64,000 bases of DNA from Patescibacteria group bacterium (GCA_034722035.1 JAYENK010000029.1:5739-69738); one strand, 5' to 3'. Counted from the first letter of the stretch, positions 46,111-64,000 are shown. Translations and numbers: made by a program. The notes: generated by a model not told the origin, from the letters alone.

Positions 46111-46320
46111 TTAGTTAACCGGTAAAACCTGTTTCATATCTTTTAAATTTTGTATTTTATCAAATTGTCCGGTAAATTTGCTTGCGTCAAGAATTTCAAT
46201 CAATATTGGTTTGCCTGCCCGAGAAACATGGATTAAAATATTGCCCACTTCGCGTACATGGCTGATTTTACCTTTAGCCAGTTCAATGCTGACTATATTG
46301 GCTTCTGCATCAAATATCAT
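46111..46320 (-). CDS. DUF2283-family small protein (putative antitoxin-like partner)
   Basis: MIFDAEANIVSIELAKGKISHVREVGNILIHVSRAGKPILIEILDAS is the DUF2283 pattern. Confidence 0.6.
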   Translation of the reverse strand: MIFDAEANIVSIELAKGKISHVREVGNILIHVSRAGKPILIEILDASKFTGQFDKIQNLKDMKQVLPVN

Positions 46321-46329
46321 TCTTTCTTC

Positions 46330-46362
46330 AATTAAGAATTAAAAATTAAAAATTAAGAATTA
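46330..46362. repeat. AT-rich dispersed element dimer in the 49-bp gap between the DUF4258 and DUF2283 genes
   Basis: caattaagaattaaaaattaaaaattaagaatta. Confidence 0.45.
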
Positions 46363-46369
46363 TTTTTTA

Positions 46370-46585
46370 TTATTTTACAGGGAAAAAGGTTATTACTTTA
46401 ATTATTTTATTTTCACTACTATAAATTACATTAATGTTATTTTTGATAGCTGAAAAATATTTACCCTTTTTTTTAGTATCATCCGGATTCGCAATCGTAT
46501 CTTCAATTTGTTCCCGCGTAAAAAACACCTGATGTCTATTCAGTATTTCAAATTTTTGATCTGCGTATTTACTAAAATATATCAT
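46370..46585 (-). CDS. DUF4258-family protein (putative toxin-like partner of DUF2283)
   Basis: MIYFSKYADQKFEILNRHQV...IKVITFFP. ATG at 46585 with an AAGGA ribosome-binding site; the track's GTG at 46600 is probably an upstream extension. Confidence 0.6.
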   Translation of the reverse strand: MIYFSKYADQKFEILNRHQVFFTREQIEDTIANPDDTKKKGKYFSAIKNNINVIYSSENKIIKVITFFPVK

Positions 46586-46594
46586 TTTTTTCCT

Positions 46595-46618
46595 TAGCAC
46601 ATTCTATGGAATGTGCTA
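46595..46618. promoter_or_regulatory. Perfect 10-bp inverted repeat (TAGCACATTC-tatg-GAATGTGCTA) at the 5' end of the DUF4258 gene, a candidate autoregulatory operator
   Basis: Seen directly. It overlaps the ribosome-binding site and start region on the minus strand. Confidence 0.35.
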
Positions 46619-46706
46619 GTATTATTAATTTGAAAACAGAAAAATATTAGTAATATTAAAATTAAGATAAAAGCATAAAATTATCAGGAAAGACCAATGA
46701 TAGTTA

Positions 46707-47402
46707 TTAGTTAGAATTATTTTCATTGCATTGTCCGTCCATTGTACATGCATCTTCTCCTTCGCCCGAAACAAGCTGGCAATGATATGTGTATCCACTT
46801 GGTAGAGCACCTTGTTTACGACATTCTTTGTGAGATATTGCTGACTCCTTTTTTTTCTTTTTGCAAGCACAAAGTAACCCTATATGATCGTTTGCGCTAC
46901 CTGGGCAGTAACTTTCATCTTTTTCATCCCATGTTATTAAATCTACTCTATTTTTCCAGTAGCACTCTGAATGATTGCTCATATCAACAACACTCGGTGT
47001 CTCCAGCTTAATCGCTGTCATCGTCAATAAATTCGGATTAACCATATATAACAAAGTATAAGACGAAAGGGCTAGAATCAAGCCGGTCAATGATGAAAAA
47101 ATCCATTGTTTAGCGTTGTCCATTTTGCTGGCGTTGCCGGCGGCCGTAATATATAATACTCCACCATACATCATTACCACCGTTGCCAAAATTCCAACGA
47201 TACCAAGGGCGTAAGTATAAATTGCATTTATTAGATTTCCGATTGAGTTGGGACCAATTTTTTTGTGACTAAATCCAATTTGATCAATAACTTGGGCGTC
47301 AAAATCTATTGCTGCCTGTACCGAGCTAATTTGTGCAAATAAAATAATGAATAAAAATAGAAAAAATAAAGGAATGATGTGTTTTGTTGTTTTTTTTGTC
47401 AT
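46707..47402 (-). CDS. TrbC/VirB2-like pilin family protein with a Cys-rich C-terminal domain (secreted)
   Basis: Signal peptide, then two hydrophobic helices (...YALGIVGILATVVMMYGGVLYITAAGNASKMDNAKQWIFSSLTGLILALSSYTLLYMVNP) typical of the TrbC/VirB2 fold. The C-terminus has 9 Cys. Confidence 0.45.
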   Translation of the reverse strand: MTKKTTKHIIPLFFLFLFIILFAQISSVQAAIDFDAQVIDQIGFSHKKIGPNSIGNLINAIYTYALGIVGILATVVMMYGGVLYITAAGNASKMDNAKQWIFSSLTGLILALSSYTLLYMVNPNLLTMTAIKLETPSVVDMSNHSECYWKNRVDLITWDEKDESYCPGSANDHIGLLCACKKKKKESAISHKECRKQGALPSGYTYHCQLVSGEGEDACTMDGQCNENNSN

Positions 47403-47418
47403 AAGTTATTTGATGACT

Positions 47419-47691
47419 CTATAAACAGTTATATATATCGTGTTTTCCGATTGATATAAAAGTAATCTCTCCATTGATTTGACGCTCGAATATAATTCGA
47501 TAATTTTTGTTAATTGAAATTGACCAGGCATTTTTTAACCGTCCATGTAGTTCGTGCATTCTTAATGATGAGTGAAGAGGATTGATTTTAAAGATTTTTT
47601 CTGTAGTAATTGCTTTTTTTATTATTTTTTTTGGCAATTTTTTTAATTGCTTTGCAAATTTTTTTGAATATTTTATTTTTACTACGATCAT
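47419..47691 (-). CDS. relE: RelE/ParE-family toxin (type II toxin-antitoxin system)
   Basis: KIKYSKKFAKQLKKLPKKIIKKA...YRIIFERQINGEITFISIGKH. Has a 4-bp ATGA overlap with the upstream antitoxin. Confidence 0.75.
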   Translation of the reverse strand: MIVVKIKYSKKFAKQLKKLPKKIIKKAITTEKIFKINPLHSSLRMHELHGRLKNAWSISINKNYRIIFERQINGEITFISIGKHDIYNCL

Positions 47692-47921
47692 AATAGATCA
47701 GCTATTGAATTAGCCTTAATTAAAGTTCCTTTTTTATATTCTTGCCTAGCTTTTTTAATCATTTTAGCTAGACTGTCTTCAGAAATAATATTATCATCTC
47801 CGTCCATTTCAAGTAGATACTTAATATAACTGCTAATTGATTTGTATCCGCGTTTTTTTACCCTGTTTTTTATTTCTTTGATTGTTTTTCCTGGCATAGA
47901 AAGACTTAAAATTTCACGCAT
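47688..47921 (-). CDS. Antitoxin partner of RelE (77 aa)
   Basis: Small protein directly upstream, translationally coupled to the toxin. A palindromic operator lies upstream. Confidence 0.55.
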   Translation of the reverse strand: MREILSLSMPGKTIKEIKNRVKKRGYKSISSYIKYLLEMDGDDNIISEDSLAKMIKKARQEYKKGTLIKANSIADLL

Positions 47922-50066: not shown

Positions 50067-50750
50067 TTATTTGTTGTTATTTTTATTATTTTGAATTAGT
50101 AATCCATTAATTATTTCGGAAAATATGTTAGGTGGAATATTCCCGGCGATTTTGATGTCATTGATATACCAAGTGGGAGTGCCAGTTATACCCAGGTTTT
50201 GCCCGGCTTTAAGATCAGCCGTAACTGAACCTAGATATTTTTTTCCTTCCAAGCAGTTATTAAATTTTTTTCCATCAAGACCAATTTGGCGCGCCAATTC
50301 ATTTAATTCATTGGCAGTGCTAATGCCTTGGTTGAGAAAAAGGGAATCATGCATCGCCCAAAATTTGTCTTGCTCGCCAGCGCATTCGGCCGAAAGCGCC
50401 AAAAGAGTAGAGTACTCGGTTATTATAGGATAATGGCGATAAATTATTCTTATTTTATCTTGATATTTTAGGCTAATCTCTCTTATTGTTGAAAAAGCGT
50501 TTTTACAATAAGGGCAGGTAAAATCACTAAATTCAACAATAGTAATAAGCGGGGAAGAGCTTCCAATCGAATGGCTAAGCGGGTTATTATTGATTAGTTT
50601 CAATTTTTCCGTACTAACAGTATATTTAGAAGAGCTCGTGCTATCAATTGGGTTTTTGTATATTTTGAAACTTTTTACTCCAATAATTACTATAACAATA
50701 ATAAATAATAATAGAGTCAATAAAAATATAATGAAAAAAAATTTTTTCAT
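50067..50750 (-). CDS. DsbA-like thioredoxin-fold thiol:disulfide oxidoreductase, N-terminal membrane anchor
   Basis: CPYC active site in FSDFTCPYCKNAF. Its stop abuts the porG start. Confidence 0.75.
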   Translation of the reverse strand: MKKFFFIIFLLTLLLFIIVIVIIGVKSFKIYKNPIDSTSSSKYTVSTEKLKLINNNPLSHSIGSSSPLITIVEFSDFTCPYCKNAFSTIREISLKYQDKIRIIYRHYPIITEYSTLLALSAECAGEQDKFWAMHDSLFLNQGISTANELNELARQIGLDGKKFNNCLEGKKYLGSVTADLKAGQNLGITGTPTWYINDIKIAGNIPPNIFSEIINGLLIQNNKNNNK

Positions 50751-51192: not shown

Positions 51193-53598
51193 ATGGAAAA
51201 ATATAATTATAATAAAACAGAAAAAAAGTGGAGTCAAAAATGGGTAGAAGACAAGACTTTTACACCTGACTTAAAAAACGCGAAAGATCCTTACTACGCG
51301 CTTTTTATGTTTCCTTATCCGAGCGCTGAAGGGCTGCATATTGGGAATTTTTATGCTTTTGTTTGTACAGACGTAATGGCAAAATACAAAAAACTACAAG
51401 GTAAGGACGTGTTTGAGCCTTTTGGCTTTGATGCTTTTGGCATGCACTTGGAAAATTATGCCCTAAAAATAGGGGAGAGGCCACAAGCAGTAGAGGCGCG
51501 TACTACCAAAAATTTTCGTAAGCAAGCACAGTCGGCCGGACTTTCTTGTGATTATACTCGTGAAGTTGACACAACCAAGCCGGAGTATTACAAATGGACC
51601 CAGTGGCTTTTTACTAAACTTTTTGAAAAAGATTTGGCTTATCAGAAAGAAGCTTTGCTCAATTGGTGTCCATCTTGCCAGACGGTTTTGGCGGACGAAC
51701 AGATAGAAGACGGGATTTGTGAAAGGTGCAATGCTCAGCCGGAGAAAAAAACAATGAAACAATGGTTTTTTCGTATTACGGCTTACGCGGATAAAATGCT
51801 TGAAGGACTTGAGGACATGGATTGGTCGGAAATTACAAAAGCAGCGCAGAAGAATTGGATTGGTAAAAGTGAAGGAGCGGAAGTTGAATTTAGAATCAAG
51901 AATTTAGAATCAAGAATTAAAGTGTTCACTACTCGTCCGGATACTTTGTTTGGCGTGACTTATATGGTGTTGGCGACGGAGCATTCTTTAATTAAAAATT
52001 TAAAATTAAGAATTAAAAATTATCAAGAAGTTCAAGCATATATTAAAAAAACTGAAGCTAAGTCAGAGTTAGAACGAACAGAAAACAAAGAGAAGACCGG
52101 AGTAAAATTAGAGGGGGTGTATGCGGTTAATCCGGTAAACAATGAAAAAATATCGATTTGGATTGCGGATTATGTAATGATGGGTTATGGGACGGGCGCG
52201 ATTATGGCAGTGCCGGCGCATGATGAGCGTGATTATGAGTTTGCGAAAAAGTTTGATTTGCCCATTGTCGAAGTGTTGAGTGGGGGAAATATTGAAAAAG
52301 AGGCATATATTGGGGACGGCAATCATATTAACTCCGGTTTTTTGAATGGTTTAAATAAAGAGAACGCAATTAAAAAAATTACTGATTGGCTTGAAGAAAA
52401 AAAATTTGGTAAAAAAGAAGTAAATTATCGTTTGCGTGATTGGTGTATTTCTCGGCAACGCTATTGGGGACCGCCGGTACCGGTTGTGTATTGTGAGAAA
52501 TGTGGAATTTTATCAGTGCCAGAAAAGGATTTGCCGGTAATGTTGCCCGAAACTCAAGAATGGGAGCCATCCGGCGATGGACGAGGACCGCTTGCCAAGG
52601 TGGACGAATTTATGAATACAAAATGTCCTAAATGCGGTGAGCCAGCTGTACGCGAAGCTGACGTAATGGACAATTTTCTTGATTCGGCTTGGTATTTTTT
52701 TCGTTATATTTCGCCAAGTAATTCTGAGGCGATATTTGATGCTAAGCTAGGTAAGAAGTGGCTGCCGGTTGATTTGTATGTTGGCGGCAATGAACATGCA
52801 GTTCTTCATTTGATGTATACCCGTTTTATTACAATGTTTTTGCACGATTTGGATTTGATTGATTTTAATAATCCTTTTAAAAAGTTTCGGGCGAATGGTA
52901 TGATTTTAAAAGACGGCAAGAAAATGAGCAAGTCTAAGGGAAACGTGATTAGTCCGGAGGAGTATGGTAAAAAAGTCGGTTATGACGCGCTTAAAACTTA
53001 TTTACTCTTTCTTGGCCCTTTGAGTGAAGACAGGTCTTTTACCGATACCGGCGTTCAAGGCACAAAAAGATGGGTGGAGAAAGTTTATAAATTAAAGGAA
53101 AAAGTATTGGATAAATATGATGACAGCGAAGAAGCGGCCAGAAAGTTGCACCAGACAATTAAAGTGGTTGGGGAAAATTTTGAAGAGCAAAAATATAACA
53201 CAGCCGTGGCCAGGTTAATGGAGCTTACCAATGTATTTGTTCAAGCTAAAAATATATCAAAAGAAAACTGGAAAAAATATTTAGCGATTATAGCTCCCTT
53301 TACTCCGGCTTTGGCCGAGGAGCTTTGGCGCGAATTTGGAAATAAGACTTCAATTTTTAGCGGTAGGAATTGGCCGGATTATGATAAAAAATCAATCAAA
53401 GAAGAAACAGTTGGAATAGTCGTGCAAATTAATGGCAAAGTGCGGGATAAGCTGAAATTAAATGCAGATATTAGCGAGGCGGACGCAATAAAAAAAGCCA
53501 AAGAATCAGAAAAAGTGAAAAAATGGCTTTTTGATAAAGAGATTATAAAAGAAATTTATGTAAAAGGGAAGTTGGTTAGTTTGGCGGTTAAAGATTAG
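51193..53598 (+). CDS. leuS: Leucyl-tRNA synthetase
   Basis: 801 aa; HIGN (HIGH) and KMSKS present; carries an in-frame tandem 14-bp repeat and a copy of the AT-rich element in the editing-domain region. Confidence 0.95.
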   Translation: MEKYNYNKTEKKWSQKWVEDKTFTPDLKNAKDPYYALFMFPYPSAEGLHIGNFYAFVCTDVMAKYKKLQGKDVFEPFGFDAFGMHLENYALKIGERPQAVEARTTKNFRKQAQSAGLSCDYTREVDTTKPEYYKWTQWLFTKLFEKDLAYQKEALLNWCPSCQTVLADEQIEDGICERCNAQPEKKTMKQWFFRITAYADKMLEGLEDMDWSEITKAAQKNWIGKSEGAEVEFRIKNLESRIKVFTTRPDTLFGVTYMVLATEHSLIKNLKLRIKNYQEVQAYIKKTEAKSELERTENKEKTGVKLEGVYAVNPVNNEKISIWIADYVMMGYGTGAIMAVPAHDERDYEFAKKFDLPIVEVLSGGNIEKEAYIGDGNHINSGFLNGLNKENAIKKITDWLEEKKFGKKEVNYRLRDWCISRQRYWGPPVPVVYCEKCGILSVPEKDLPVMLPETQEWEPSGDGRGPLAKVDEFMNTKCPKCGEPAVREADVMDNFLDSAWYFFRYISPSNSEAIFDAKLGKKWLPVDLYVGGNEHAVLHLMYTRFITMFLHDLDLIDFNNPFKKFRANGMILKDGKKMSKSKGNVISPEEYGKKVGYDALKTYLLFLGPLSEDRSFTDTGVQGTKRWVEKVYKLKEKVLDKYDDSEEAARKLHQTIKVVGENFEEQKYNTAVARLMELTNVFVQAKNISKENWKKYLAIIAPFTPALAEELWREFGNKTSIFSGRNWPDYDKKSIKEETVGIVVQINGKVRDKLKLNADISEADAIKKAKESEKVKKWLFDKEIIKEIYVKGKLVSLAVKD

Positions 53599-54565
53599 TT
53601 AAATACCATTCTCCGTTTAATTCTTTTTCAATATAAAATTCAACCGGCACCGAGTAGCCACCCATTGAAAAATAGACATTATTTTTATAAGTAAGTTTGT
53701 CGTCAATTTCTGTTGCTAGAGTGGATCCGGAAAGGATATTACCGAGAACAAGCCTGCTATCGTCATTGAAAGACTCAAAAATATTTCTAATAGCTATTTC
53801 CATGTCTGGTCTGAAATATTTTATTGCTTCGTCCGGGTCATTATTTCTGATGGTGCTGGCTGCATTTTTTATAACATTATATTTTCCCGTAGAAAGAACG
53901 GGAGTATCCGATACGTCCGGTTTGGGGAAAATGTTAGGTTCATTTGGGATAATATGAGTTGAAATCTTATTAATATTAATATTATTTATGCCCAGGCCAA
54001 ATTTACGCATAATTTTGAAAGCAACCGAGGGGCGGGACAAGTAGTATCGTTTTAAATTATCCGGACTCACATACCAGGCCTCACCATTTTGCTCAATTTG
54101 CAGGAATATTTTTCCTGTATTTTTTTTGACAAAGTTTTCATCAATTAATATTTTGTCCGCACCAATTGGATTATAATTATTAATTATTTCATCATAATCA
54201 CTGTGTCCATCATTATCACTGTCCGGATTATCTTTGTCTGTAAGCAGTGTCTCTTCCAGCCGGTTTCCAAGTCCGTCATTGTCATTATCTTTATCGATGT
54301 CTGCTATAACGCCAATAGGGATTTTACTTAGATTATCATTGGTGATGCCGATGCCAAGTTTACGCATAGTACTAAAAGCGTCACTAGGCTTGTTTAGATA
54401 ATATTTTTTATAATTTTCCGGGTTAACGTACCAAGCTTCACCGTTATTTTCGATTTGAAGCAAAATTTTTCCCGCTAGTTTTTGTCCTAGATTGATATCT
54501 GCTTTGACTGGCAAGATAATTAAAAATAGAGCTAAAGCTAAGAATAATCCTTTTTTTATATGCAT
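53588..54565 (-). CDS. Secreted protein with a duplicated approximately 45-aa module and two EF-hand/dockerin-like calcium-binding loops
   Basis: Signal peptide. Repeats AGKILLQIENNGEAWYVNPENYKKYYLNKPSDAFSTMRKLGIGIT and TGKIFLQIEQNGEAWYVSPDNLKRYYLSRPSVAFKIMRKFGLGIN. Loops DNDNDGLGNRLE and DSDNDGHSDYDE. Confidence 0.55.
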   Translation of the reverse strand: MHIKKGLFLALALFLIILPVKADINLGQKLAGKILLQIENNGEAWYVNPENYKKYYLNKPSDAFSTMRKLGIGITNDNLSKIPIGVIADIDKDNDNDGLGNRLEETLLTDKDNPDSDNDGHSDYDEIINNYNPIGADKILIDENFVKKNTGKIFLQIEQNGEAWYVSPDNLKRYYLSRPSVAFKIMRKFGLGINNININKISTHIIPNEPNIFPKPDVSDTPVLSTGKYNVIKNAASTIRNNDPDEAIKYFRPDMEIAIRNIFESFNDDSRLVLGNILSGSTLATEIDDKLTYKNNVYFSMGGYSVPVEFYIEKELNGEWYLTNL

Positions 54566-54605
54566 AAATTTGTTATAATGAATATACTTATATTATAGCA
54601 AAAAT

Positions 54606-55142
54606 ATGGTAATTAAGAAAAAATATAAATTATCGACAATAATTATTTTGTTGTTATTATTTTTCTTTTGGGGCGGGAGCGCAATTAATAAAAAATTGGA
54701 ATGGAAAATAGTTGAGGATTTAATTGCCGGCAGCGCATTCCCGGTTGAGATGGGAAATATTAATTCTACGGTGGCTCAATGTGTTCCGTCATGCTATGAT
54801 CCAATAGCTTCTTGTTGTGCTCCTCCATGTTCAGAAGTGGTGCCTTCTAGAGGCGATTATGAAGCAACTTGCCCCCTGTATTCGTTTGTAAGCGGACAGT
54901 CAACCGGCGGGACAGGAGGAAATACGGCGATATTTTCCAATATTGCGATGGGACAAGCCGGCCTAACATCGGGTGGACAGTTTATTTACGGTGGAACTAC
55001 TAATAATATGTCTTTGGGCGAGCAAAACGCAGTCTTAGCTTCAGTGGATGGTTGCTATAATTGTTACGCAAAAAATAAAAGTAATTGGAAGCAAAAATTT
55101 GCCGTGGTTGCCGACATGTTTATGGCGATGTTCAAGGATTAA
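54606..55142 (+). CDS. Membrane-anchored Cys-rich secreted hypothetical protein
   Basis: N-terminal TM, 9 Cys, G/T-rich stretch. Confidence 0.45.
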   Translation: MVIKKKYKLSTIIILLLLFFFWGGSAINKKLEWKIVEDLIAGSAFPVEMGNINSTVAQCVPSCYDPIASCCAPPCSEVVPSRGDYEATCPLYSFVSGQSTGGTGGNTAIFSNIAMGQAGLTSGGQFIYGGTTNNMSLGEQNAVLASVDGCYNCYAKNKSNWKQKFAVVADMFMAMFKD

Positions 55143-55190
55143 AGCTTGATTGATTTTTTAGTTTATTTTGCTATAATTAAATAAAATAAT

Positions 55191-55463
55191 ATGATAAAAA
55201 ATACAAGAAAAATTAAAAAACAAGAATTTTCTGTTTTGATTGAAAAAGATGAAAGCGGTTTTTATTTTGCTAAAGTGCCAACAATTAAAGGCTGTCATAC
55301 TCAAGCTAAATCATTGTCAGAATTGTATAAACGCTTAGATGAAGCAGTATTACTTTGTTTGGAAGTGCAAGAAAAAGATAAAGAATATTTAATTAGCAAG
55401 AATGAGTTTGTTGGTTTTCAAAAAATAGAAGTGAAAATACCTCCAAAATTAAAATATGCCTAA
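55191..55463 (+). CDS. hicB: HicB-family antitoxin
   Basis: FSVLIEKDESGFYFAKVPTIKGCHTQAKSLSELYKRLDEAVLLCLE. Confidence 0.7.
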   Translation: MIKNTRKIKKQEFSVLIEKDESGFYFAKVPTIKGCHTQAKSLSELYKRLDEAVLLCLEVQEKDKEYLISKNEFVGFQKIEVKIPPKLKYA

Positions 55464-55692
55464 ACTAACACTGATAAGCGGGGAAAAAATGCTTAAATTA
55501 CTTGCTTTGTGCGATTTTGAGATTGTTAGAATTAAAGGAAGTCATCATTTTTTAAAAAATAAAACCAAAAGAAGTATGACGGTAGTGCCAGTTCATGGAA
55601 ATGAAGAATTAGGTGTTGGTTTGTTAATTAGCATATTGTCAGATGTGGATTTGTCCAGAAAAGAATATGAAAAATTACGGCGAAAAATTTAA
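55456..55692 (+). CDS. hicA: HicA-family toxin (mRNA interferase)
   Basis: KLLALCDFEIVRIKGSHHFLKNKTKRSMTVVPVHGNEELGVGLLISIL. Has an 8-bp overlap with hicB. Confidence 0.75.
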   Translation: MPKLTLISGEKMLKLLALCDFEIVRIKGSHHFLKNKTKRSMTVVPVHGNEELGVGLLISILSDVDLSRKEYEKLRRKI

Positions 55693-55698
55693 TAAAAA

Positions 55699-55725
55699 AT
55701 CATCCTCATGTAGGATGATTTTTTA
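55699..55725 (+). terminator. Rho-independent terminator after hicA
   Basis: atcatcctc-atg-taggatgat + T6. Confidence 0.5.
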
Positions 55726-55801
55726 CGTGGACCCAAAAAGAGGCCACCGACTGGTACGGAGTTCCATGATTAACTAAATATATAATAACTGCCTATATTA
55801 A

Positions 55802-56626
55802 ATGTCAAGTTTGATCCAAAAAACAATTAATATTTCCAAAAAATATAATATCAGCCCAAAACGTAGCAAGGGGCAGAATTTTTTGATTAATGAAAGTGTT
55901 TATAATCAAATAGTTGAAGTGGCTGATTTGCAATACGAAGATATTGTTCTAGAAGTTGGGCCAGGGCTCGGATTTTTAACAGAAAAATTAGCAGAAAAAG
56001 TTAACAGAGTAGTTGCGGTAGAGCTGGATGATGGATTGACTGAGGTATTGCGGGCGAGATTAAAGGAGAAAGAGATTGGTAATGTTGAGGTAATTAATGA
56101 AGATGTACTTAAAATTTTCAATTTTCAATTTTCAATTTTCAATTTTAAAATTATCGCGAATTTGCCGTATAATATTACTTCGATTTTTCTTAGAAAAGTT
56201 TTGGAGTTGGAAAATAAGCCTAAAAGCTTAACTTTGATGTTGCAAAAAGAAGTTGCGAAGCGGATTACGGCAGAGCCGGGAAAGATGAGTAAATTGACGG
56301 TTTCGGTTCAGTTTTACGCGGACGCAGAGATTCTTTTTAATGTACCTAAGACAGATTTTTGGCCTGAGCCCAAGGTGGACAGTGCAGTAATTGAGTTAAA
56401 AATAAAAAGTAAAAAGTATAAAGTAGATGATAAGAGGTTTTTTCAACTGGTGCGGATTGGCTTTAGCGCAAGGCGGAAGAAACTTAAGAATAATTTGGCG
56501 AGCGGTTATCAGATAAAGGCGGAAGAAGCGGGAGAAAGACTAAAATTAGCTAATTTAAATCCAGATTGTCGCGCTCAAGATTTAGGCGTACAAGATTGGA
56601 TAAAATTACTTGGTTATTTTAGTTGA
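55802..56626 (+). CDS. rsmA: 16S rRNA (adenine1518/1519-N6)-dimethyltransferase
   Basis: KGQNFLINESV..., SAM motif VLEVGPGLGFLT, NLPYNITS. Contains an (AATTTTC)x4 microsatellite in-frame (FNFQFSIFNF). Confidence 0.9.
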   Translation: MSSLIQKTINISKKYNISPKRSKGQNFLINESVYNQIVEVADLQYEDIVLEVGPGLGFLTEKLAEKVNRVVAVELDDGLTEVLRARLKEKEIGNVEVINEDVLKIFNFQFSIFNFKIIANLPYNITSIFLRKVLELENKPKSLTLMLQKEVAKRITAEPGKMSKLTVSVQFYADAEILFNVPKTDFWPEPKVDSAVIELKIKSKKYKVDDKRFFQLVRIGFSARRKKLKNNLASGYQIKAEEAGERLKLANLNPDCRAQDLGVQDWIKLLGYFS

Positions 56627-56704
56627 TTTATGTTATAATTAACATAAGCTGTTGATTACTTTACCAGATAAATAATTTTTAATTCTTAATTAAATCTCTC
56701 CCCC

Positions 56705-57397
56705 ATGCCTGAAAATTACTCAGAACAAACCAATACACCAGAAGATTCTATTTCCGGTCATTTTGTTAAGCTAAAAACAAGTCAGAAGGTTGCTTTTGTA
56801 GTCCTGGCTTTTTTTGCTGTTTTTGTATTTGGCGCTTGGGTGGTTCAGCTGAAAAATAGCATAGTTTCGCCTTTGGCACGTCCCGCTGCGGTAGCGACTG
56901 ATAACTCAAATAACGCAAGTATTTGCACCGGCCCGAATTGTACTGACGGTACAATAGAAGAATTAAAAGCAAAAGACACAGACAAAGACGGATTAAATGA
57001 TTATGAGGAACTGGAAATATATAAAACTTCACCTTATTTAGAGGACAGTGACAGTGATGGTTTCAGTGATTACGAGGAAGTGCAGTCGGATAATGACCCC
57101 AATTGTCCGGATGGGGCAAATTGTGGTTCGGTTCCGGTGCCAAACAGTTCTAAAGAATTAATTGAGACTGATTTAAGTTTGCCGGAGCAGAATTTAGGCG
57201 TAGATCCATCGATTTTTGCCAAAGATAGCGTTGTACTCGAAAATATTTTACTCGGACAAAGCGATGTTGAATCTTTGCGCGCGCTTTTGCTTCAGTCCGG
57301 TATGGACGAAAATTTGCTTGGACAAATTAATGATAAGGATTTAATGAAATATTATGAAGATACGCTTAGTTCAATGAATGAGGCGAGCGTAAAGTAA
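56705..57397 (+). CDS. Membrane-anchored extracellular protein with paired canonical EF-hand / TSP3-like calcium-binding loops
   Basis: TM anchor; DTDKDGLNDYEE ...(11 aa)... DSDSDGFSDYEE, followed by DNDPNCPDGANCG. Confidence 0.5.
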   Translation: MPENYSEQTNTPEDSISGHFVKLKTSQKVAFVVLAFFAVFVFGAWVVQLKNSIVSPLARPAAVATDNSNNASICTGPNCTDGTIEELKAKDTDKDGLNDYEELEIYKTSPYLEDSDSDGFSDYEEVQSDNDPNCPDGANCGSVPVPNSSKELIETDLSLPEQNLGVDPSIFAKDSVVLENILLGQSDVESLRALLLQSGMDENLLGQINDKDLMKYYEDTLSSMNEASVK

Positions 57398-57424
57398 ATA
57401 AACAAATTCATAAAATTATATATA

Positions 57425-60400
57425 CATGAAAAATTTTGTTAAGTTTAAAAAAAATATAACAGTTTTATTTACTTTAATGTTTTTGTTTGCAACTTGCTTG
57501 GTATTTGGTCCTAATGTTGTTTTCGCGGATTCTTTTTTTGATTCTTTCTTGGGTCCGCCGGCAATTGAGACAAAAGATACTAGGTTAAAAAGATTGATTA
57601 GTGGAATTGACAAAAGTAATAAAGCCAAGGAAAAAGAAGATAAAGTTAAGCAAAATCTTGGGTCTAAATTGTATTACAGCACTCTAAGTAAGGCCTTAGG
57701 TATGATTGCTTATGATACTGCTACTTGGATTGGTTCCGGTGGTGAGGGTCAAAAGCCATTGTTTATTAAGGAAGGCTGGAGAGAATATTTGGTGAATGTA
57801 AGCGATAATGCGGCTGGTAAATTTATAGAAACATTAGGGAAAGAAAACGGCTATCTTGAGTTTGATCTTTGTGAGCCAAGTTTTGCCGGTAAATTCTCAA
57901 TCAATTTGGGTCTTCATAGCAAGTACAGTGGTCGAGATAAGCCTGCCTGTACTTTTTCTGAAATGAGAGATAACTGGGAAGCTGAATTAAATCGTCCTGA
58001 TTTTTTAAGTCGGTTTAAAACCGTGTTTAAGCCAGAATCTAATGATGTTGGCATTGCTTTATCGGCTCACACTAAGATTATTGAAGAGCAGGCAATTAGC
58101 TTAAGGTTTAAATCGCTTGAGCGTGAGGAAGGTGATTCTTGGCTTGATGTGCGAGATATTGCCGGAGACCTAAAAAGTCCTCCTGGTTGGGCTAAACGAG
58201 AAGCCAATGATTTAAAAGGACCACTGATAGATAATTTTGGACAGATATCTGGTGATATTTTAGTTGACGCAGCTAACATATTTCTTAATCAATTAGCAAT
58301 TACTGCGATTAACAACTTGATGCGCTCGTTGGGGCGTGATTTAGATACTTATACTTCGCCTTATTCTTGGGATAATCCAGACGCCGGACCAATCCGGGGC
58401 GGAATAGTGGCCGCCAAAGAACGTTTCCGTAAAATTATTGAGCCGATATTCGATGTACGTGGAGATTATAATATTTTGAGCGAATTGTCAGTTTGTCCGG
58501 ATCCGAATAAAGCTGGTCCGACTAATTGTGTTTTGGACGATCAATTTCAAAGCGCGATTGAGGCTAAGTTAACTGTAGCGGAAGCGATGGAGGAGGGATA
58601 TCTAAAAAAAGACGGCGTGTTTGGGTTTTTGTCCGGGAACGATTTAGAGCCAAATTATATTGAGGGCTACCCTTATCGTAGTATGAAAATACTGCGCAAA
58701 TTTCGAATAATTCCGGTTGGTTGGGAATTAGCCGCGCAATATATCGCCGAGCACCCCGAGGACGTTGGCGGGGTTAAGACTTTGGAAGATTTAGTTGTTT
58801 GTTATGACGGCAATGACCCACATATCGGACAAGATGATTATCAAGAAGTTTGGTGTAAGGGTTTGGTTGATCCAAATTGGGTTTTAAAGGCGCCGCTTAA
58901 TTATTGTGGGCGTGAAGGTCCTGGTCCGGAGATAGTGAGCGAGGAAGTGCTCGGCAGTGGTGAAGATAGCTATTTATCTATTAAACGCAATGAAAATTAT
59001 TGCGCCGATGAGCAGGCTTGTATCCAGGAGAATCAGGATGGCTCTTGTGAATACTATGGTTATTGCACGGAAGAACGGCGCAAATGGGATTTTGACGGGG
59101 AAAGTTGTAATCCTTTATATAATACTTGTCAAACTTATCGTTCTAGCGGCGGACAAACCGTTTCTTATTTGAATAATACGTTAGACTATGGTTCTTGCGG
59201 CGCGGATAATGCCGGTTGTTTGGCTTATTGTGAGGAATACGATAATGTGAATAATTTTAAGTGTAATGGCGTGAATGACGCTATTTTGCGGGCTGACGCC
59301 GGCATTGAAGCTTGCGATTATTCGAGCGAAGGATGTCATGAATTTATCCGTTTTAAACCAGGACTTGGTTCTAATTTACTTATTAATTCAAGTTTTGAAG
59401 ATTATGATGGAATTGCCAATAATGATGACGGAGGAAATATTGATAATGTGGCTGAGATTGGTCTAGGGGATTGGGAAATAATAAGTGAAGCCTATATTGG
59501 GAATTCTGCTTTACATTTAATGGGTGTTCTTGATTTAAGTGATGTTTTTGGACCAGATAGTTGGATGGTTGGCGGGCAAGGTTATACTTTTTCTTTTTAT
59601 GCAAAAGATTGTAGTGCCAATGCTGATGATACCGCTGGTTTGGGCGTGAATGGAGACGATGAAACAATCACAATTGCCTCTCATCCGGATTGGCGTTTTT
59701 ACACTTTGTCCAAGGTTTTTTCGGATGATGTTAATACTCCGACTCTAAATATTAAGTTTAATATAAATGACACTTGTGATATTGACGGGTTAAAATTAGA
59801 AATGGGAGCTGAGGCAACTGTTTGGAGTGACTACAGGGATAATGGTTTGGTTTATCAAAAATTAGCGCCGGATCATTTGACTTGTGATGGAGATAGTGAT
59901 CCATCAGAATGTAGTCGTTTTGTGCGAGAATGCACAATTGGTGAGTTTGGCTGCGATCTTTATACAGCGCAGTCCGATGGGATGACTATTCCGGCTCGAG
60001 TGGCGAATGATGATTATTGTCCGGGAGCGTGTGTTGGTTATGACGAATATGTTCAGCGTTCAAGTAGTTTTGATTCGGAAACACTTAAAAAAATTATTCC
60101 AAATACAGCCAGAAATTGCAACGCGCAGGCGGTTGGCTGTGATGAATTTACTAATTTAGATAGAATCGGTGAGGGTGCAGAAGCGCGTGAGTATTATAGC
60201 GAGCTTAAACAGTGTGTGATTGAAACCGAGGAAACACCTAATCCGGATTGTAGCGCTTTTTATACTTGGGAAGGAAGTTCGGAAACCGGTTATCAACTCA
60301 GGGTATTTAGACTCAAGGCGGATGGAAGTGGAGAGCCGATTTTGACTAATAACGGGCTATACAATGATTTGGATTGTGCATCAACGACGTATGATTTGGA

Positions 60401-63400
60401 AATAAATCCAATGTGCCGTGAGTTCTATGATCCAAGCGGAGAACGTTTCTATGAGTTTTTACCCTATGTGATTACTTGCAGTAATAATTGCCATCCTTAT
60501 CGGCGTAGTGTTAAAAATATTTTACCCAGTATAGTCGAGGCTTTTGCTCTTTGCCAGTCTGATTGTGGCGGTAATCCATTGTGTTTAGTAGAATGTAGTA
60601 ATACAGATGACTGTAATATTGACAGCGGAAGCAGAATATGCGAGTTTGACGATGGAAAAGCGGTATATTGTAAAGATGGCGGTCTATGGCGGTACGACCA
60701 TCAATCTTGTCTTTATCAGGCGATTCCGGATGAGGGGGTAAAATGCAACGCAAGCGCGGCTGGTTGCCGTGAATATACCGGCCCTAGCGGGTATAATATC
60801 CGGCGATTGTTTGCAGATAATTTTGAGTCAGGTCATACCGATGATTGGACCGGTCTAAATACGATTGAACCCAGTAGCGAATCACTTTTGGTTGGTGGCC
60901 ATTCTCTTTATGTTAACAATCCCGGTGCGAGCACTTCTAAAGACGTACACACAATAGTACGGACAGGCAAAACTTATATTTTGCGTTTTATTGCACGTAG
61001 TCCGCTTGATCAAATAATAACAGCTTATTTTGCTTCCACCACTGCTTCGGGGGCTGATATTGCAACAACCAGTTTTAACGGTCAGGCTGAGATAGACTCT
61101 GAGTGGCAAATTTTTGAGCTTAATTCCAATATAATTGAGCGTGATATTTGGGGAGAGGAAGTGTTAATAATAGCGGGAACAGACGAATTTTATATTGATG
61201 ATATTCAATTAATTGAAGTAACGGACCGATATTATTTAATTACCGATCCTTGGAATACGCCGGATGTTTGTTATAAGGACATATTTGGCAATGGTCAAGG
61301 AGAGGATTTTAATCTTGGCTGTGAGATTTACATCGACAGGGACGATAATATTAATTATATTCATAGTTTTTCCAATTTATGCCAGGATGACGCGGTTGGC
61401 TGTGAGCTTATGATTGATACAAATAATTATGATGATAGCGCCAGTTCAACTTGGTTTGGTAGTGAGCAAGCAGATTGTGATGTTGCGATAAATGATGATT
61501 GTCGCGAAGTAGAGGAAGATGAATATAAATATGTAGTGTATAATTCGGATAAATTATGCAATTCTACAGAAAAAGGTTGCCAGCTTTTAGGCAGCCCATA
61601 TAATTATGAAGATACAACCCTATATTCGTCCGTATATTTGAAAAATGATCCTAATGAGTATGGTCGGATTTTATGTGAATATCAGGATGAAAATTGCGCG
61701 GCCTGGACTATGAATAATTCGTCTGATTATTTTAAAGATCCGGGGGATATGGTTTGTGAGTGGCGAACCGAAGCAAGTGGAAATATAAGTAATTCAGCCT
61801 GGTATAAAAAGAAAATTAAGCGTTGTGACGAGAATGATAATGGAAGTATTGAATTGCTTGAAACCAGTGTTTGTCAGAATGATAATGACTGTAGTGCTGG
61901 CTTTTGTATTCTTGATGAAAATAATCATCCTTGTGAGTTTGATAAGCTTAAAACAATTGGCTATGGCGGATATGGCAATGTAATTTCTCAGCCAACTATG
62001 GATGGCGATAATAATTGGGTCGGGCTTTGTCCGGCTGATGAATCCGGTTGCAGTGAATACATCGATCCAATCTCTCGTTTTAATCCAAACACTATATTTA
62101 ACGCGTCTTTTGCCGATCTTGATGGCGATGGCAATCCCGCTGATGGTTGGAGTGGTAGTTCGCAAAGAGTAGATGTTGAGCCTTATACCCTGTATCGATT
62201 TGGCGGAAAAGGTACCGGTGATTCGATTTTGGATTGTGACAATCCTATTTATTGGCTTTCGACAGACAATATGCTTAACGATACGACAAATCCGCGTACG
62301 TTTAATATTGGCGCTATCTATCAAAGTCGTTTAGTCTATACAGACTCTAATACTGTTTGTACAACATCGGTAGAAAATGCGACTGAAGTAGATGGTAGAG
62401 AAATTGAATTGCGTGAAGTTGTTGTTGATTATCAGCTTCAGCAAGAACTTGATCAAGGAAGTTGTACCGGTTTAGTGGAATATGATAATGGATGCGTTTT
62501 ATTTAATAAAAGAACTTTTGATAAAGATGGGTGCAATGAGCTTGATTCTGATGCGGATCATTCGATTGGCTCAACTACGTCCGCACCACCGGTGGCAGGA
62601 GTGGTTGACGCGGACAATGATTCAAATGTTGTTCTAAAAGTTACACCTAATCGGATCTGTGATAAATGGTTGGCCTGCAAATCATATGTAAAAGAAGATG
62701 AGGAAACTATTTGTTATGACCTTGGGCTTTGTGATAGTTTGAATCGGAGCGGTAACTGTGATTCCTTTGTTATAGAAAAGAAGAAAAATCAAAGTTACGC
62801 ACTTTTTGATGGTGGGTATTTTGCCAATAAAAGCGGGTATTCGCTTAGTGGCTTAATGGACAGTCAATTTGAAACCGATTACTATCCTGTGGGAGAAATG
62901 GAGCAAGTTGGTAATGTTGCTCAAGTGGCGAATGGGGGTTTTGAAGTTTACGGTGATAATAATTATCCGATAAGCTGGATGCCTGTTAATTCCAGTTGGG
63001 ACGAAAATGATTTTCGCGTAATTAGCAATCCTTTTGGCTCTGAAAGAGAGAGTATTGAACGCGCCCTCAAAGGCAGAAGTTTCTTAAAACTCGGTTTTAG
63101 CCATATGGCCGTTTCCGAATTCATTAACGTGGAGCAGAATACGGAATATACCCTTTCCGCTTTTATTAATACCATAAATTTGTATGAAGGCGAGGCCAGG
63201 ATCAGCGTTCAAAAATATGATTGTTCCGGTTCTAGGCAGGGTGGTAGCTTTGATGTTCACGGCGCATCTTTGTCGTCAGGAGAAAAATGGACATTTGTTT
63301 CGGGACGATTTAATATTTTAGGAACGGCAAATCGGATCAAGTTAACCTTGTATGTCGATTCACCCGGGGACGTAGAAGGAAATTTTTATTTTGATGATAT

Positions 63401-64000
63401 AAAATTGCGTCCGGCTCTAAATGTACGAGATATTATTGCTAGTGGAAACACTCAATATGTTTCTCAGACTTGCCGCTTATATCCAAAAGATGATGCTTTG
63501 TCTTGTGAATATTTTGAGGAATCGGGCATTAAAAATAAAGGCATATACGGTTATTGTCTGGAATATGATCGCGCGCCCGGTTCTAAGGACACTTGCATTT
63601 TGTGGTATCCGGTGGACAGGGTTAAAGGTGATGGGATTGAAGGGGGGGCTGGTTATAACGGGAAAATGCCGGTTTATTATTGTACAGACGCAATTCCTAT
63701 TTTTGGTTTTCAAGGAGAATGGAAAGATTGGCTTGTTCCGAAGGGTGGGAGTTGTGGTGACATTATTATAAATAACGATCGTTTTAACGCGTATATGAAT
63801 ACGGATGAACCAGATGGATTGACTGGTGGTGGATGCGACGGTGATTACGGCGGTCTTCGCAATCGTCCTCCAGGTTGGGGTGGGGGCACGTTTAATGATT
63901 GTCCAGGAAATTGTGCTGATACCAGGCAAAGCGACTATCTTTTGCCTAGTCCAATAACTACAGATGCAAACGACAGATCATGGTATTATTTATCTTTTTA
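57425..64000 (+). CDS. Giant (more than 2,170 aa, 3' partial) Cys-rich extracellular protein with several CBM4/9-like jelly-roll modules. The signal peptide is separated from the body by a 1-nt frame change in a T6 tract, so the gene is a possible pseudogene or phase-variable gene.
   Basis: ATG 57425 encodes MKNFVKFKKNITVLFTLMF, then T6 at 57479-57484. The original frame stops at 57512-57514. The adjacent frame (open from 57477 to the window end with no stop) continues ...FATCLVFGPNVVFA|DSFF.... Downstream there are repeated xGC(x)E(F/Y) Cys motifs and modules such as NSSFEDYDG...GNSALHL..., DNFESGHTDDW...GGHSLYV..., ANGGFEVYGDNNYPISWMP... Confidence 0.55.

Follow-up and report, generated by a model that had tools for sequence, protein, structure and literature searches.

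Do calcium-binding motifs that recur in two neighbouring exported proteins of a Patescibacteria genome belong to one surface machine, or to separate systems that happen to lie side by side? The question arises from a window of 64,000 nt, a fragment of a Patescibacteria (Candidate Phyla Radiation, CPR) genome on whose whole length all coordinates below are counted, in which two proteins, here called protein 1 and protein 2 (Table 1), each carry two 12-residue loops of the EF-hand kind. To our knowledge, almost nothing is known of how Patescibacteria organize their surface. A sequence-only reading of the window had grouped the two loop proteins with a giant neighbour said to carry many carbohydrate-binding modules (CBMs) and with a small Cys-rich membrane protein as a single surface-protein locus, and had raised the possibility of a calcium-dependent, cellulosome-like assembly. 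Both open reading frames (ORFs) were found exactly where that reading placed them, as were all four canonical loops and a spacing close to the ~23 residues it had given; the proposed assembly fared less well, showing neither a dockerin nor a cohesin signal.

Assignment of the loops to TSP3_bac

Translated in all six frames, the window gives 127,996 residues, in which a relaxed version of the loop motif, D.[DN].[DN]G..[DNS]..[ED], has exactly four matches; all four also satisfy the strict form D.D.DG..[DN]..E. The loops of protein 1, on the minus strand, are DNDNDGLGNRLE (nt 54254-54289) and DSDNDGHSDYDE (nt 54188-54223), starting at residues 93 and 115, that is, 22 residues apart; those of protein 2, on the plus strand, are DTDKDGLNDYEE (nt 56975-57010) and DSDSDGFSDYEE (nt 57044-57079), starting at residues 91 and 114, a distance of 23 residues. 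When each protein was shuffled 200,000 times, at least two loops arose in protein 1 at a frequency of 5e-6 and in protein 2 not once. The two-loop arrangement recurs in 108 of the 120 best hits of the protein 1 family and in 114 of the 120 of the protein 2 family, the remainder matching the pattern once, and wherever both loops match, the spacing is always 22 residues in the first family and always 23 in the second. Alignments of 115 protein 1 and 120 protein 2 homologues, at ~40-50% identity, show loop positions 1, 3, 5 and 12 to be invariant (115/115 and 120/120), position 9 to be Asp or Asn save for one Ser among the protein 1 homologues, and position 6 to be Gly in at least 92%, with the non-ligand positions 2, 4, 8 and 10 varying freely. 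Invariant ligand positions combined with free variation elsewhere are the signature of functional calcium sites, not of compositional accident, an explanation that we reject on this ground and on the shuffling frequencies. Both families are extensive, comprising at least 1500 (protein 1) and at least 764 (protein 2) homologous clusters after clustering at 90% identity, and are conserved over their full length; all homologues with a given organism are from Patescibacteria, save one record titled Planctomycetes.

Profile searches place the repeats in a known family. TSP3_bac (PF18884), the bacterial thrombospondin type 3 (TSP3) repeat, matches protein 2 with 29.1 bits (E 9e-7), above the gathering cut-off of 25, and it matches 111 of the 115 protein 1 homologues (best E 2.4e-13) and 116 of the 120 protein 2 homologues (best E 1.2e-12), or 227 of 235 in the two families together. 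On this sequence evidence, the four loops are two tandem pairs of TSP3_bac repeats of the DxDxDG class, and of the two identities offered by the sequence-only reading, dockerin or TSP3 repeat, the second holds and the first does not. NCBI annotation already applies the name "thrombospondin type 3 repeat-containing protein" to several homologues from Patescibacteria, so that the loops alone add little: repeats of this type have been catalogued and are auto-annotated in these genomes. Together with the dockerin-domain protein of a Saccharibacterium (PMC10633639), these names make the statement that nothing of the kind had been described for CPR genomes too strong.

The neighbouring families can be set aside in turn. 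Eukaryotic TSP_3 (PF02412) gave no match at E<=10 in protein 1 or 2, and the repeats contain no internal cysteines, so that a eukaryotic TSP3 identity is rejected. The 12-residue loop itself follows the EF-hand consensus; however, the profiles EF-hand_1, 5, 6 and 7 matched neither window protein, one or two homologues matched EF-hand families weakly (E 0.012-0.26), and the AlphaFold2 (AF2) model of protein 1 lacks an entering helix before loop 1, which together argue against a canonical EF-hand pair. Nor are the two proteins paralogues. Their family profiles align over 46 columns only, which correspond to the loop pair (probability 96.7%, E 3.4e-10), in agreement with the earlier view that the proteins are otherwise unrelated.

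Relationship to the Bap EF-hand pair

Among experimentally characterised relatives, the loops come closest to the pair formed by EF-hands 2 and 3 in Staphylococcus aureus Bap, because structure and profile both match it and because Bap has been probed by mutagenesis. Specifically, the Bap B domain (7c7r/7c7u) was the top PDB hit of a Foldseek search with the protein 2 model (probability 1.00), with a root-mean-square deviation (rmsd) of 0.7-0.8 Å and 36-39% identity over 44-47 columns. Bap was also the best match of the protein 2 family profile among PDB sequences (E 0.014), with DTDGDGKNDGDEVVNYKTSP aligned to the family consensus; whole protein 1 and whole protein 2, searched singly against PDB sequences, returned spurious weak matches only. 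The EF-hand-like motifs of Bap occupy residues 729-741 and 752-764, 23 residues apart, and calcium control of Bap-mediated biofilm is lost when loop positions 1, 3 and 12 are mutated (PMC7785521). Calcium binding has further been found to stabilise Bap region B against amyloid-like self-assembly (PMC7785521).

The M-TSP3-TSP3-M cassette of protein 1

In protein 1, the repeats form the centre of a larger unit. The protein consists of a signal peptide, a module that we call M1, the TSP3 pair, a second module M2, a linker and an NTF2-like domain, as seen in an AF2 model built from the family alignment (mean predicted local distance difference test score, pLDDT, 88.7), in which residues 206-227 form the disordered linker. 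M1 and M2 are 63 residues each and 57% identical; the internal duplication seen in the sequence-only reading is therefore genuine, although the unit is longer than the 45 residues then given. For the NTF2-like domain, Foldseek against the PDB returned designed NTF2 folds, ketosteroid-isomerase-like proteins and the PBP2a N-terminal domain (E ~0.02, probability 0.95-0.99), and homologues of protein 1 gave weak hits to DUF4864 and DUF4878. All Foldseek matches of the model fall in this domain, apart from one to IseA, the Bacillus subtilis DL-endopeptidase inhibitor (8wt4, 8i2e, 2rsx; 44 columns, rmsd 2.3-2.5 Å, 20% identity, probability 0.99), for which the query region was not located. Against viral structures Foldseek found nothing at E<=0.001; one uncultured-phage protein aligned over 55 columns with 44% identity. 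The M module, searched as single sequences, as 50 members and as a profile against Pfam, NCBIfam and PDB sequences, gave sub-threshold noise only (NPBW, YnaM, Rpb5), and a literature search found no paper on the M module or on TSP3 repeats in Patescibacteria.

The distribution of M is far wider than that of protein 1. Searched with the protein 1 alignment, GTDB species genomes yielded at least 590 loci, most of which match residues ~20-205 only, that is, M1, the pair and M2, in host ORFs of 150 to ~2500 residues. The cassette lies near the N-terminus of 60 of these ORFs and near the C-terminus of 28, and at seven loci two cassette genes stand side by side. By motif count, M-T-T-M (T denoting one TSP3 repeat) is the commonest architecture, in 47 of 91 GTDB ORFs, accompanied by C-terminal T-T-M forms on proteins of up to ~2500 residues; M modules without the pair and C-terminal T-T-M forms were also seen at loci L018, L052 and L072. 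A representative search with an M profile made from the two window copies found 3537 clusters at 50% identity, 3214 of them with E<=1e-10. Among the best 148 representatives (P0241-P0388), 59 are M-T-T-M, 24 M-T-M and 39 M-M, and the modules lie ~69 residues apart in M-M proteins versus 119-122 residues with the pair in between, which identifies the calcium pair as an optional insert of ~50 residues between two M modules.

The domains attached to the cassette are diverse: CAP, CARDB, fn3, the purple-acid-phosphatase N-terminal domain, NAGPA and GH10; peptidases C25, S8 and S11 as well as trypsin-like and transglutaminase-like domains; and staphylococcal nuclease, DsbA/thioredoxin, beta-helix and beta-propeller domains. 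Hydrophobic export signals are found at the N-terminus of 215 of 235 cassette proteins, with a lipobox, an LPXTG motif and a further membrane segment each found in a single one of the 235. Since a short duplicated module thus stands at one or the other end of many unrelated exported proteins that lack another anchor, the M-TSP3-TSP3-M cassette is probably an envelope-targeting or anchoring device. Whatever its role, M is an undescribed portable unit, usually duplicated around the pair and common to thousands of exported Patescibacteria proteins, and it offers a concrete candidate for envelope retention which, if borne out, would help to predict which enzymes stay on the cell.

Protein 2 and its giant neighbour

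Protein 2 shares nothing with this architecture beyond the repeats. It comprises an N-terminal membrane helix, a Cys pair, the TSP3 pair, a second Cys pair, a linker and a helical C-terminal domain; the AF2 model has a mean pLDDT of 75.7, with values of 85-95 for the membrane helix, TSP3 pair and C-terminal domain, and a disordered linker. Residues R192, L195, G199 and L205 of the C-terminal domain are invariant, and neither Foldseek against the PDB nor the Pfam scan of homologues gave this domain a significant fold or family match.

The gene for protein 2 is bound to that of the giant protein, which begins 28 nt after it. The giant ORF had been described as multi-CBM; the ORF is real, and its only Pfam match is CBM_4_9 (E 1.9e-8, in two stretches), so that the term is weakly documented. 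Three complete giant homologues match CBM_4_9 more weakly or not at all, and no PDB sequence matched the giant protein at E<=1. In nearly all loci, the gene after a protein 2 homologue encodes a giant homologue of 2473-3097 residues, the gap being 12-28 nt in the closest pairs. Where a locus is orthologous to the window, the order is giant, protein 2, ksgA, Cys-rich gene, protein 1, leuS. Scanning metagenomes with the protein 2 alignment added distant relatives, in which protein 2 is 31-37% and the giant protein 25-30% identical, and ksgA, protein 2 and an ORF of 2600-3100 residues are adjacent in 15 of the 17 metagenome loci having downstream sequence; the protein 2-giant adjacency recurs in GTDB and contig loci. 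This constant position immediately ahead of the giant gene makes a role as membrane tether or assembly partner of the giant product the most likely one for protein 2.

The same comparison separates the two loop proteins. The distant metagenome loci keep the run from ksgA through protein 2 to the giant gene, and their leuS-ksgA interval is devoid of both protein 1 and the Cys-rich gene; conversely, at three loci ksgA, the Cys-rich gene and protein 1 are present, and protein 2 and its giant neighbour are both missing. There are therefore two independent pairs, Cys-rich/protein 1 and protein 2/giant, and the presence of both TSP3 proteins within 4 kb is the gene order of one sub-lineage, not a single system. 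A common operon or system for proteins 1 and 2 is rejected on this basis and because HicAB and ksgA lie between them, and with it the single surface-protein locus of the sequence-only reading.

At six loci whose sequence extends past the giant gene, a TrbL/VirB6-like polytopic membrane protein is encoded downstream of it, either directly or past a small ORF. Such a neighbour is a hint that the giant protein and protein 2 may be parts of a surface apparatus resembling a type IV secretion system (T4SS). A small and tractable partner for a giant surface protein can be nominated from this deeply conserved gene string, which runs from ksgA through the membrane TSP3 protein and the giant CBM-like protein to the TrbL/VirB6-like protein. 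A cultivated Saccharibacterium has been reported to depend on a dockerin-domain protein and a pilin-bearing T4SS as essential envelope components (PMC10633639), and the string may link the giant protein to that essential T4SS-like apparatus. It is this string and the M cassette that might repay further work.

Proposed mechanism and its alternatives

These observations can be assembled into a mechanism. Each TSP3 pair would bind calcium outside the cell and fold into a small, rigid, calcium-dependent connector, comparable to the EF-hand 2/3 pair of Bap; calcium binding is suggested by the conserved ligands and the Bap match, and the extracytoplasmic location by the signal peptide or membrane anchor, the Cys pairs flanking the repeats of protein 2 and the nearby DsbA-like gene. 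In protein 1 the connector would space the two copies of M, a module that we take to be Patescibacteria-specific, with the cassette keeping its NTF2-like cargo at the envelope. In protein 2 a connector beside the membrane would hold out the linker and a helical domain that contacts the giant protein, a contact suggested by the fixed gene pairing. Taken together (calcium connectors, retention by the cassette, and partnership of protein 2 with the giant protein), this scheme seems to us modestly probable. An extended version is more speculative, and we hold it as a tentative and rather doubtful proposal: that the cassette is a Patescibacteria-specific, calcium-stiffened anchor for surface display, a counterpart of SLH domains or dockerins with a receptor such as the cell wall, the S-layer or pili, and that protein 2 is the dedicated membrane tether for the giant CBM-like protein of a T4SS-like apparatus containing TrbL/VirB6. 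Were it true, the cassette would be the means by which these ultra-small bacteria keep numerous and diverse exported enzymes and binding proteins attached to their envelope.

Several observations weigh against the scheme or its parts. The TSP3_bac score of protein 1 itself, 12.5 bits, lies below the cut-off of 25. M has no relative of known function detectable by sequence searches, so the term anchor derives from the fusion pattern, and that pattern would also be consistent with a pro-domain, with an aid to folding or with a module that binds a ligand. The pair is missing from 39 of the 148 best M representatives, the M-M proteins, implying that calcium is not essential to the role of M. On the side of protein 2, the TrbL assignment is weak (Pfam TrbL, E 0.0022, on a truncated product), and leuS, dsbA, the pyruvate:ferredoxin oxidoreductase (POR) genes and a pilin-like gene are syntenic as well; with gene order so broadly conserved, adjacency by itself is weak functional evidence among close relatives.

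Of the other explanations, the best placed is a Bap-like calcium-sensing switch, in which the proteins would be folded, or else disordered or self-associating, according to whether the loops are occupied, and surface behaviour would track ambient calcium. The very close predicted match to the Bap pair, with the same 23-residue spacing in protein 2, speaks for such a switch. However, the match is confined to the 44-47-residue pair, the amyloid-prone remainder of region B is missing, and invariant ligand positions fit constitutive structural sites equally well; we regard a switch as unlikely.

Direct adhesion ranks marginally lower. Here the acidic repeats, once loaded with calcium, would be the adhesive surface and bind directly to a host or matrix ligand, for instance a glycan or a surface protein. 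This has been proposed for CglD and MtsD, adhesion proteins of myxobacteria that carry TSP3 repeats, and weak local NCBIfam matches to the TSP3 regions of these two were found (E 0.0075-0.047). The predicted extracytoplasmic location agrees with this idea, as does the host-attached lifestyle thought likely for Saccharibacteria (PMC10633639). Nevertheless, the CglD and MtsD matches, at 11-14 bits against family cut-offs of 400-800, lie far below those cut-offs and involve the repeats only, and the variable, surface-facing loop positions bear no conserved binding signature. TSP3-rich adhesins carry many repeats, whereas each window protein has two, and on the whole adhesion through the repeats appears an unlikely, slightly weaker contender than the switch.

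A dockerin-like role, in which the loop pairs would dock in a calcium-dependent manner on cohesin-like domains of the giant or Cys-rich protein in a cellulosome-like surface assembly, is improbable. Its attractions are (i) the position of the cassette at the N- or C-terminus of many enzymes, including GH10 proteins, proteases and NAGPA, a dockerin-like distribution, (ii) the tight linkage of protein 2 to the giant CBM-like protein, and (iii) a dockerin-domain protein essential in a Saccharibacterium (PMC10633639). Against these stand the profile searches: Dockerin_1 (PF00404) gave no match at E<=10 in protein 1 or 2, and it is not among the 25 most frequent families listed for either set of homologues (235 in all) in a Pfam scan at E<=1 that returned 57 families for the protein 1 set and 79 for the protein 2 set. 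Nor did Cohesin match either candidate partner, the giant protein being searched at E<=1 and the Cys-rich protein at E<=10. The geometry also differs. Dockerin repeats are spaced more widely than 22-23 residues, a type I dockerin consisting of two F-hand segments, each a loop plus a helix of ~12 residues, joined by a linker, with loop starts well over 22-23 residues apart; here the loops start 22-23 residues apart and are followed in the AF2 models by helices of 6-7 residues. The missing match, the short period and the short helices led us to reject a dockerin identity, and the dispensability of the pair in the M-M proteins and the lack of linkage between protein 1 and the giant gene in more distant genomes count further against a docking role. 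Finally, that the loops are a functionless accident of Asp-rich linkers, an idea encouraged by the 8-10% Asp content of both proteins, is refuted by the shuffling result (at least two loops in no more than 5e-6 of shuffles per protein) and by ligand positions and spacing that are invariant across hundreds of sequences.

Gene order and neighbouring genes

The locus reads leuS (+), protein 1 (-), Cys-rich gene (+), HicB/HicA (+), ksgA/rsmA (+), protein 2 (+) and giant ORF (+), with the features of the window and of related loci collected in Table 1. The 3' ends of leuS and protein 1 overlap by 11 nt (window 53588-53598). The Cys-rich protein carries eight cysteines and a hydrophobic N-terminal segment, in line with its earlier description as a Cys-rich membrane protein, and Pfam and NCBIfam searches assigned it to no family. 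A counterpart is identifiable in the same slot in 14 of 14 loci examined; these fast-evolving, small, N-terminally hydrophobic proteins often show GGQLI.GG, VLAS.GGC.GC and a C-terminal IIAGFKD. Protein 1 and its divergent Cys-rich neighbour have start codons only 40 nt apart, which leaves almost no space for separate promoters, and a scan of 53300-57700 for promoters and terminators returned nothing informative.

Table 1. Features of proteins 1 and 2 and of the surrounding genes. Positions are window nucleotides, except in the last row, where they refer to the related loci named.
Feature	Position	Strand	Remarks
Protein 1	53588..54565	-	325 aa; NCBI locus tag U9Q85_02955, 100% identity
N-terminal signal peptide/anchor, residues 1-22	54500..54565	-	MHIKKGLFLALALFLIILPVKA; read from sequence; helix 6-16 in model
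Module M1, residues 24-86	54308..54496	-	GEAWY motif; beta-beta-beta-alpha-beta-alpha (model); hidden Markov model (HMM) built from 50 modules, 106.7 bits
TSP3_bac pair of protein 1, residues 90-135	54161..54298	-	pLDDT 95-97; 6-residue helix after each loop
Module M2, residues 143-205	53951..54139	-	Second GEAWY copy; same HMM, 105.2 bits
NTF2-like C-terminal domain, residues 228-325	53591..53884	-	Foldseek; alpha+beta
Protein 2	56705..57397	+	230 aa; U9Q85_02980, 100% identity
Membrane helix, residues 25-54	56777..56866	+	Model; K28 invariant, W45 and P56 >=90% conserved
TSP3_bac pair of protein 2, residues 88-135	56966..57109	+	Flanked by cysteines 74/79 and invariant 134/140
Helical C-terminal domain, residues 169-229	57209..57391	+	4-5 helices, pLDDT 87-94
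Giant Cys-rich exported protein	57426..64000	+	>2191 aa, extends past window end
leuS	51193-53598	+	Convergent with protein 1
Small Cys-rich membrane protein	54606..55142	+	178 aa, divergent from protein 1
HicB/HicA toxin-antitoxin pair	55191..55692	+	Unrelated insert between Cys-rich gene and ksgA
KsgA/RsmA 16S rRNA dimethyltransferase	55802..56626	+	RrnaAD E 1.8e-62; housekeeping; always upstream of protein 2
DsbA-like gene	50067-50750		Near the protein 1/protein 2 locus
YafQ/RelE-like toxin	47419-47691	-	Overlapping 77-aa partner 47688-47921
T4SS_pilin-family protein	46707-47402	-	231 aa; PF18895, E 4.3e-11
DUF2283 protein	46111-46320	-	
TrbL/VirB6-like genes	L086 18890-20666; L087 20212-; L096 ~19907-; L103 ~19890-; L106 ~19504-; L107 18619-		

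The HicB/HicA pair is peculiar to this genome, the slot between the Cys-rich gene and ksgA being free of it in related loci. Other mobile inserts occupy adjacent slots there, namely a Y1 transposase (L003 9278-9997) and ORF6N genes (L003, L085), and taken together these inserts suggest that the conserved block tolerates insertions at gene boundaries. Further upstream, a group of small genes on the minus strand sits among the POR genes (window 46111-47921). The leucyl-tRNA synthetases of relatives reach 985-1022 residues through extra domains, internal or fused, of NUDIX (L001 12215-15172; L086 1-777) or alpha/beta-hydrolase type (L087 2175-5243); that of the window has 801 residues, and no such domain was seen in it. 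Record titles look unreliable for taxonomy: GTDB records with Patescibacteria gene order are often titled 'uncultured Gammaproteobacteria bacterium' (binchicken metagenome-assembled genomes; L014, L016, L017, L019, L022 and others), and the record of L063 is titled 'Woesearchaeota archaeon'.

Comparison with known systems

The likenesses and differences can be drawn against five kinds of system. TSP3_bac repeats share with both proteins the DxDxDGxxDxxE loop, the short helix, the T/S-P turn and the period of 22-23 residues; they differ in that only two repeats occur here and in that the host proteins belong to no described family. Among individual TSP3_bac proteins, the myxobacterial CglD and MtsD have full-length models that the window proteins do not match. 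S. aureus Bap resembles them in its two extracellular loops, spaced as in protein 2, with calcium dependence established by mutagenesis in Bap only. Bap itself, however, is a 2276-residue, LPXTG-anchored adhesin whose region B forms amyloid at low calcium and low pH; beyond the aligned columns the rest of that region is not present in the window proteins, and no LPXTG motif occurs in their sequences, in keeping with its near absence among cassette proteins, which sets both apart from the Bap/Esp class.

Type I dockerins are alike in that exported proteins bear two copies of an EF-hand-type calcium loop and that the module is portable, being attached to varied enzymes; they differ from the present pairs in profile match, period and helix length, and no cohesin match was obtained in the giant or Cys-rich protein. 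Eukaryotic thrombospondin and COMP type 3 repeats likewise line up Asp-rich DxDxDG calcium sites in tandem on extracellular proteins. They carry a disulfide pattern within each repeat, whereas the protein 1 pair has no cysteine and the cysteine pairs of protein 2 only flank its repeats. Lastly, the SLH, LysM, SH3b and CWB2 modules of Gram-positive envelope retention show no sequence similarity to the M cassette and are analogous to it in function only, each being a short repeated module placed at the N- or C-terminus of many unrelated exported enzymes devoid of another anchor.

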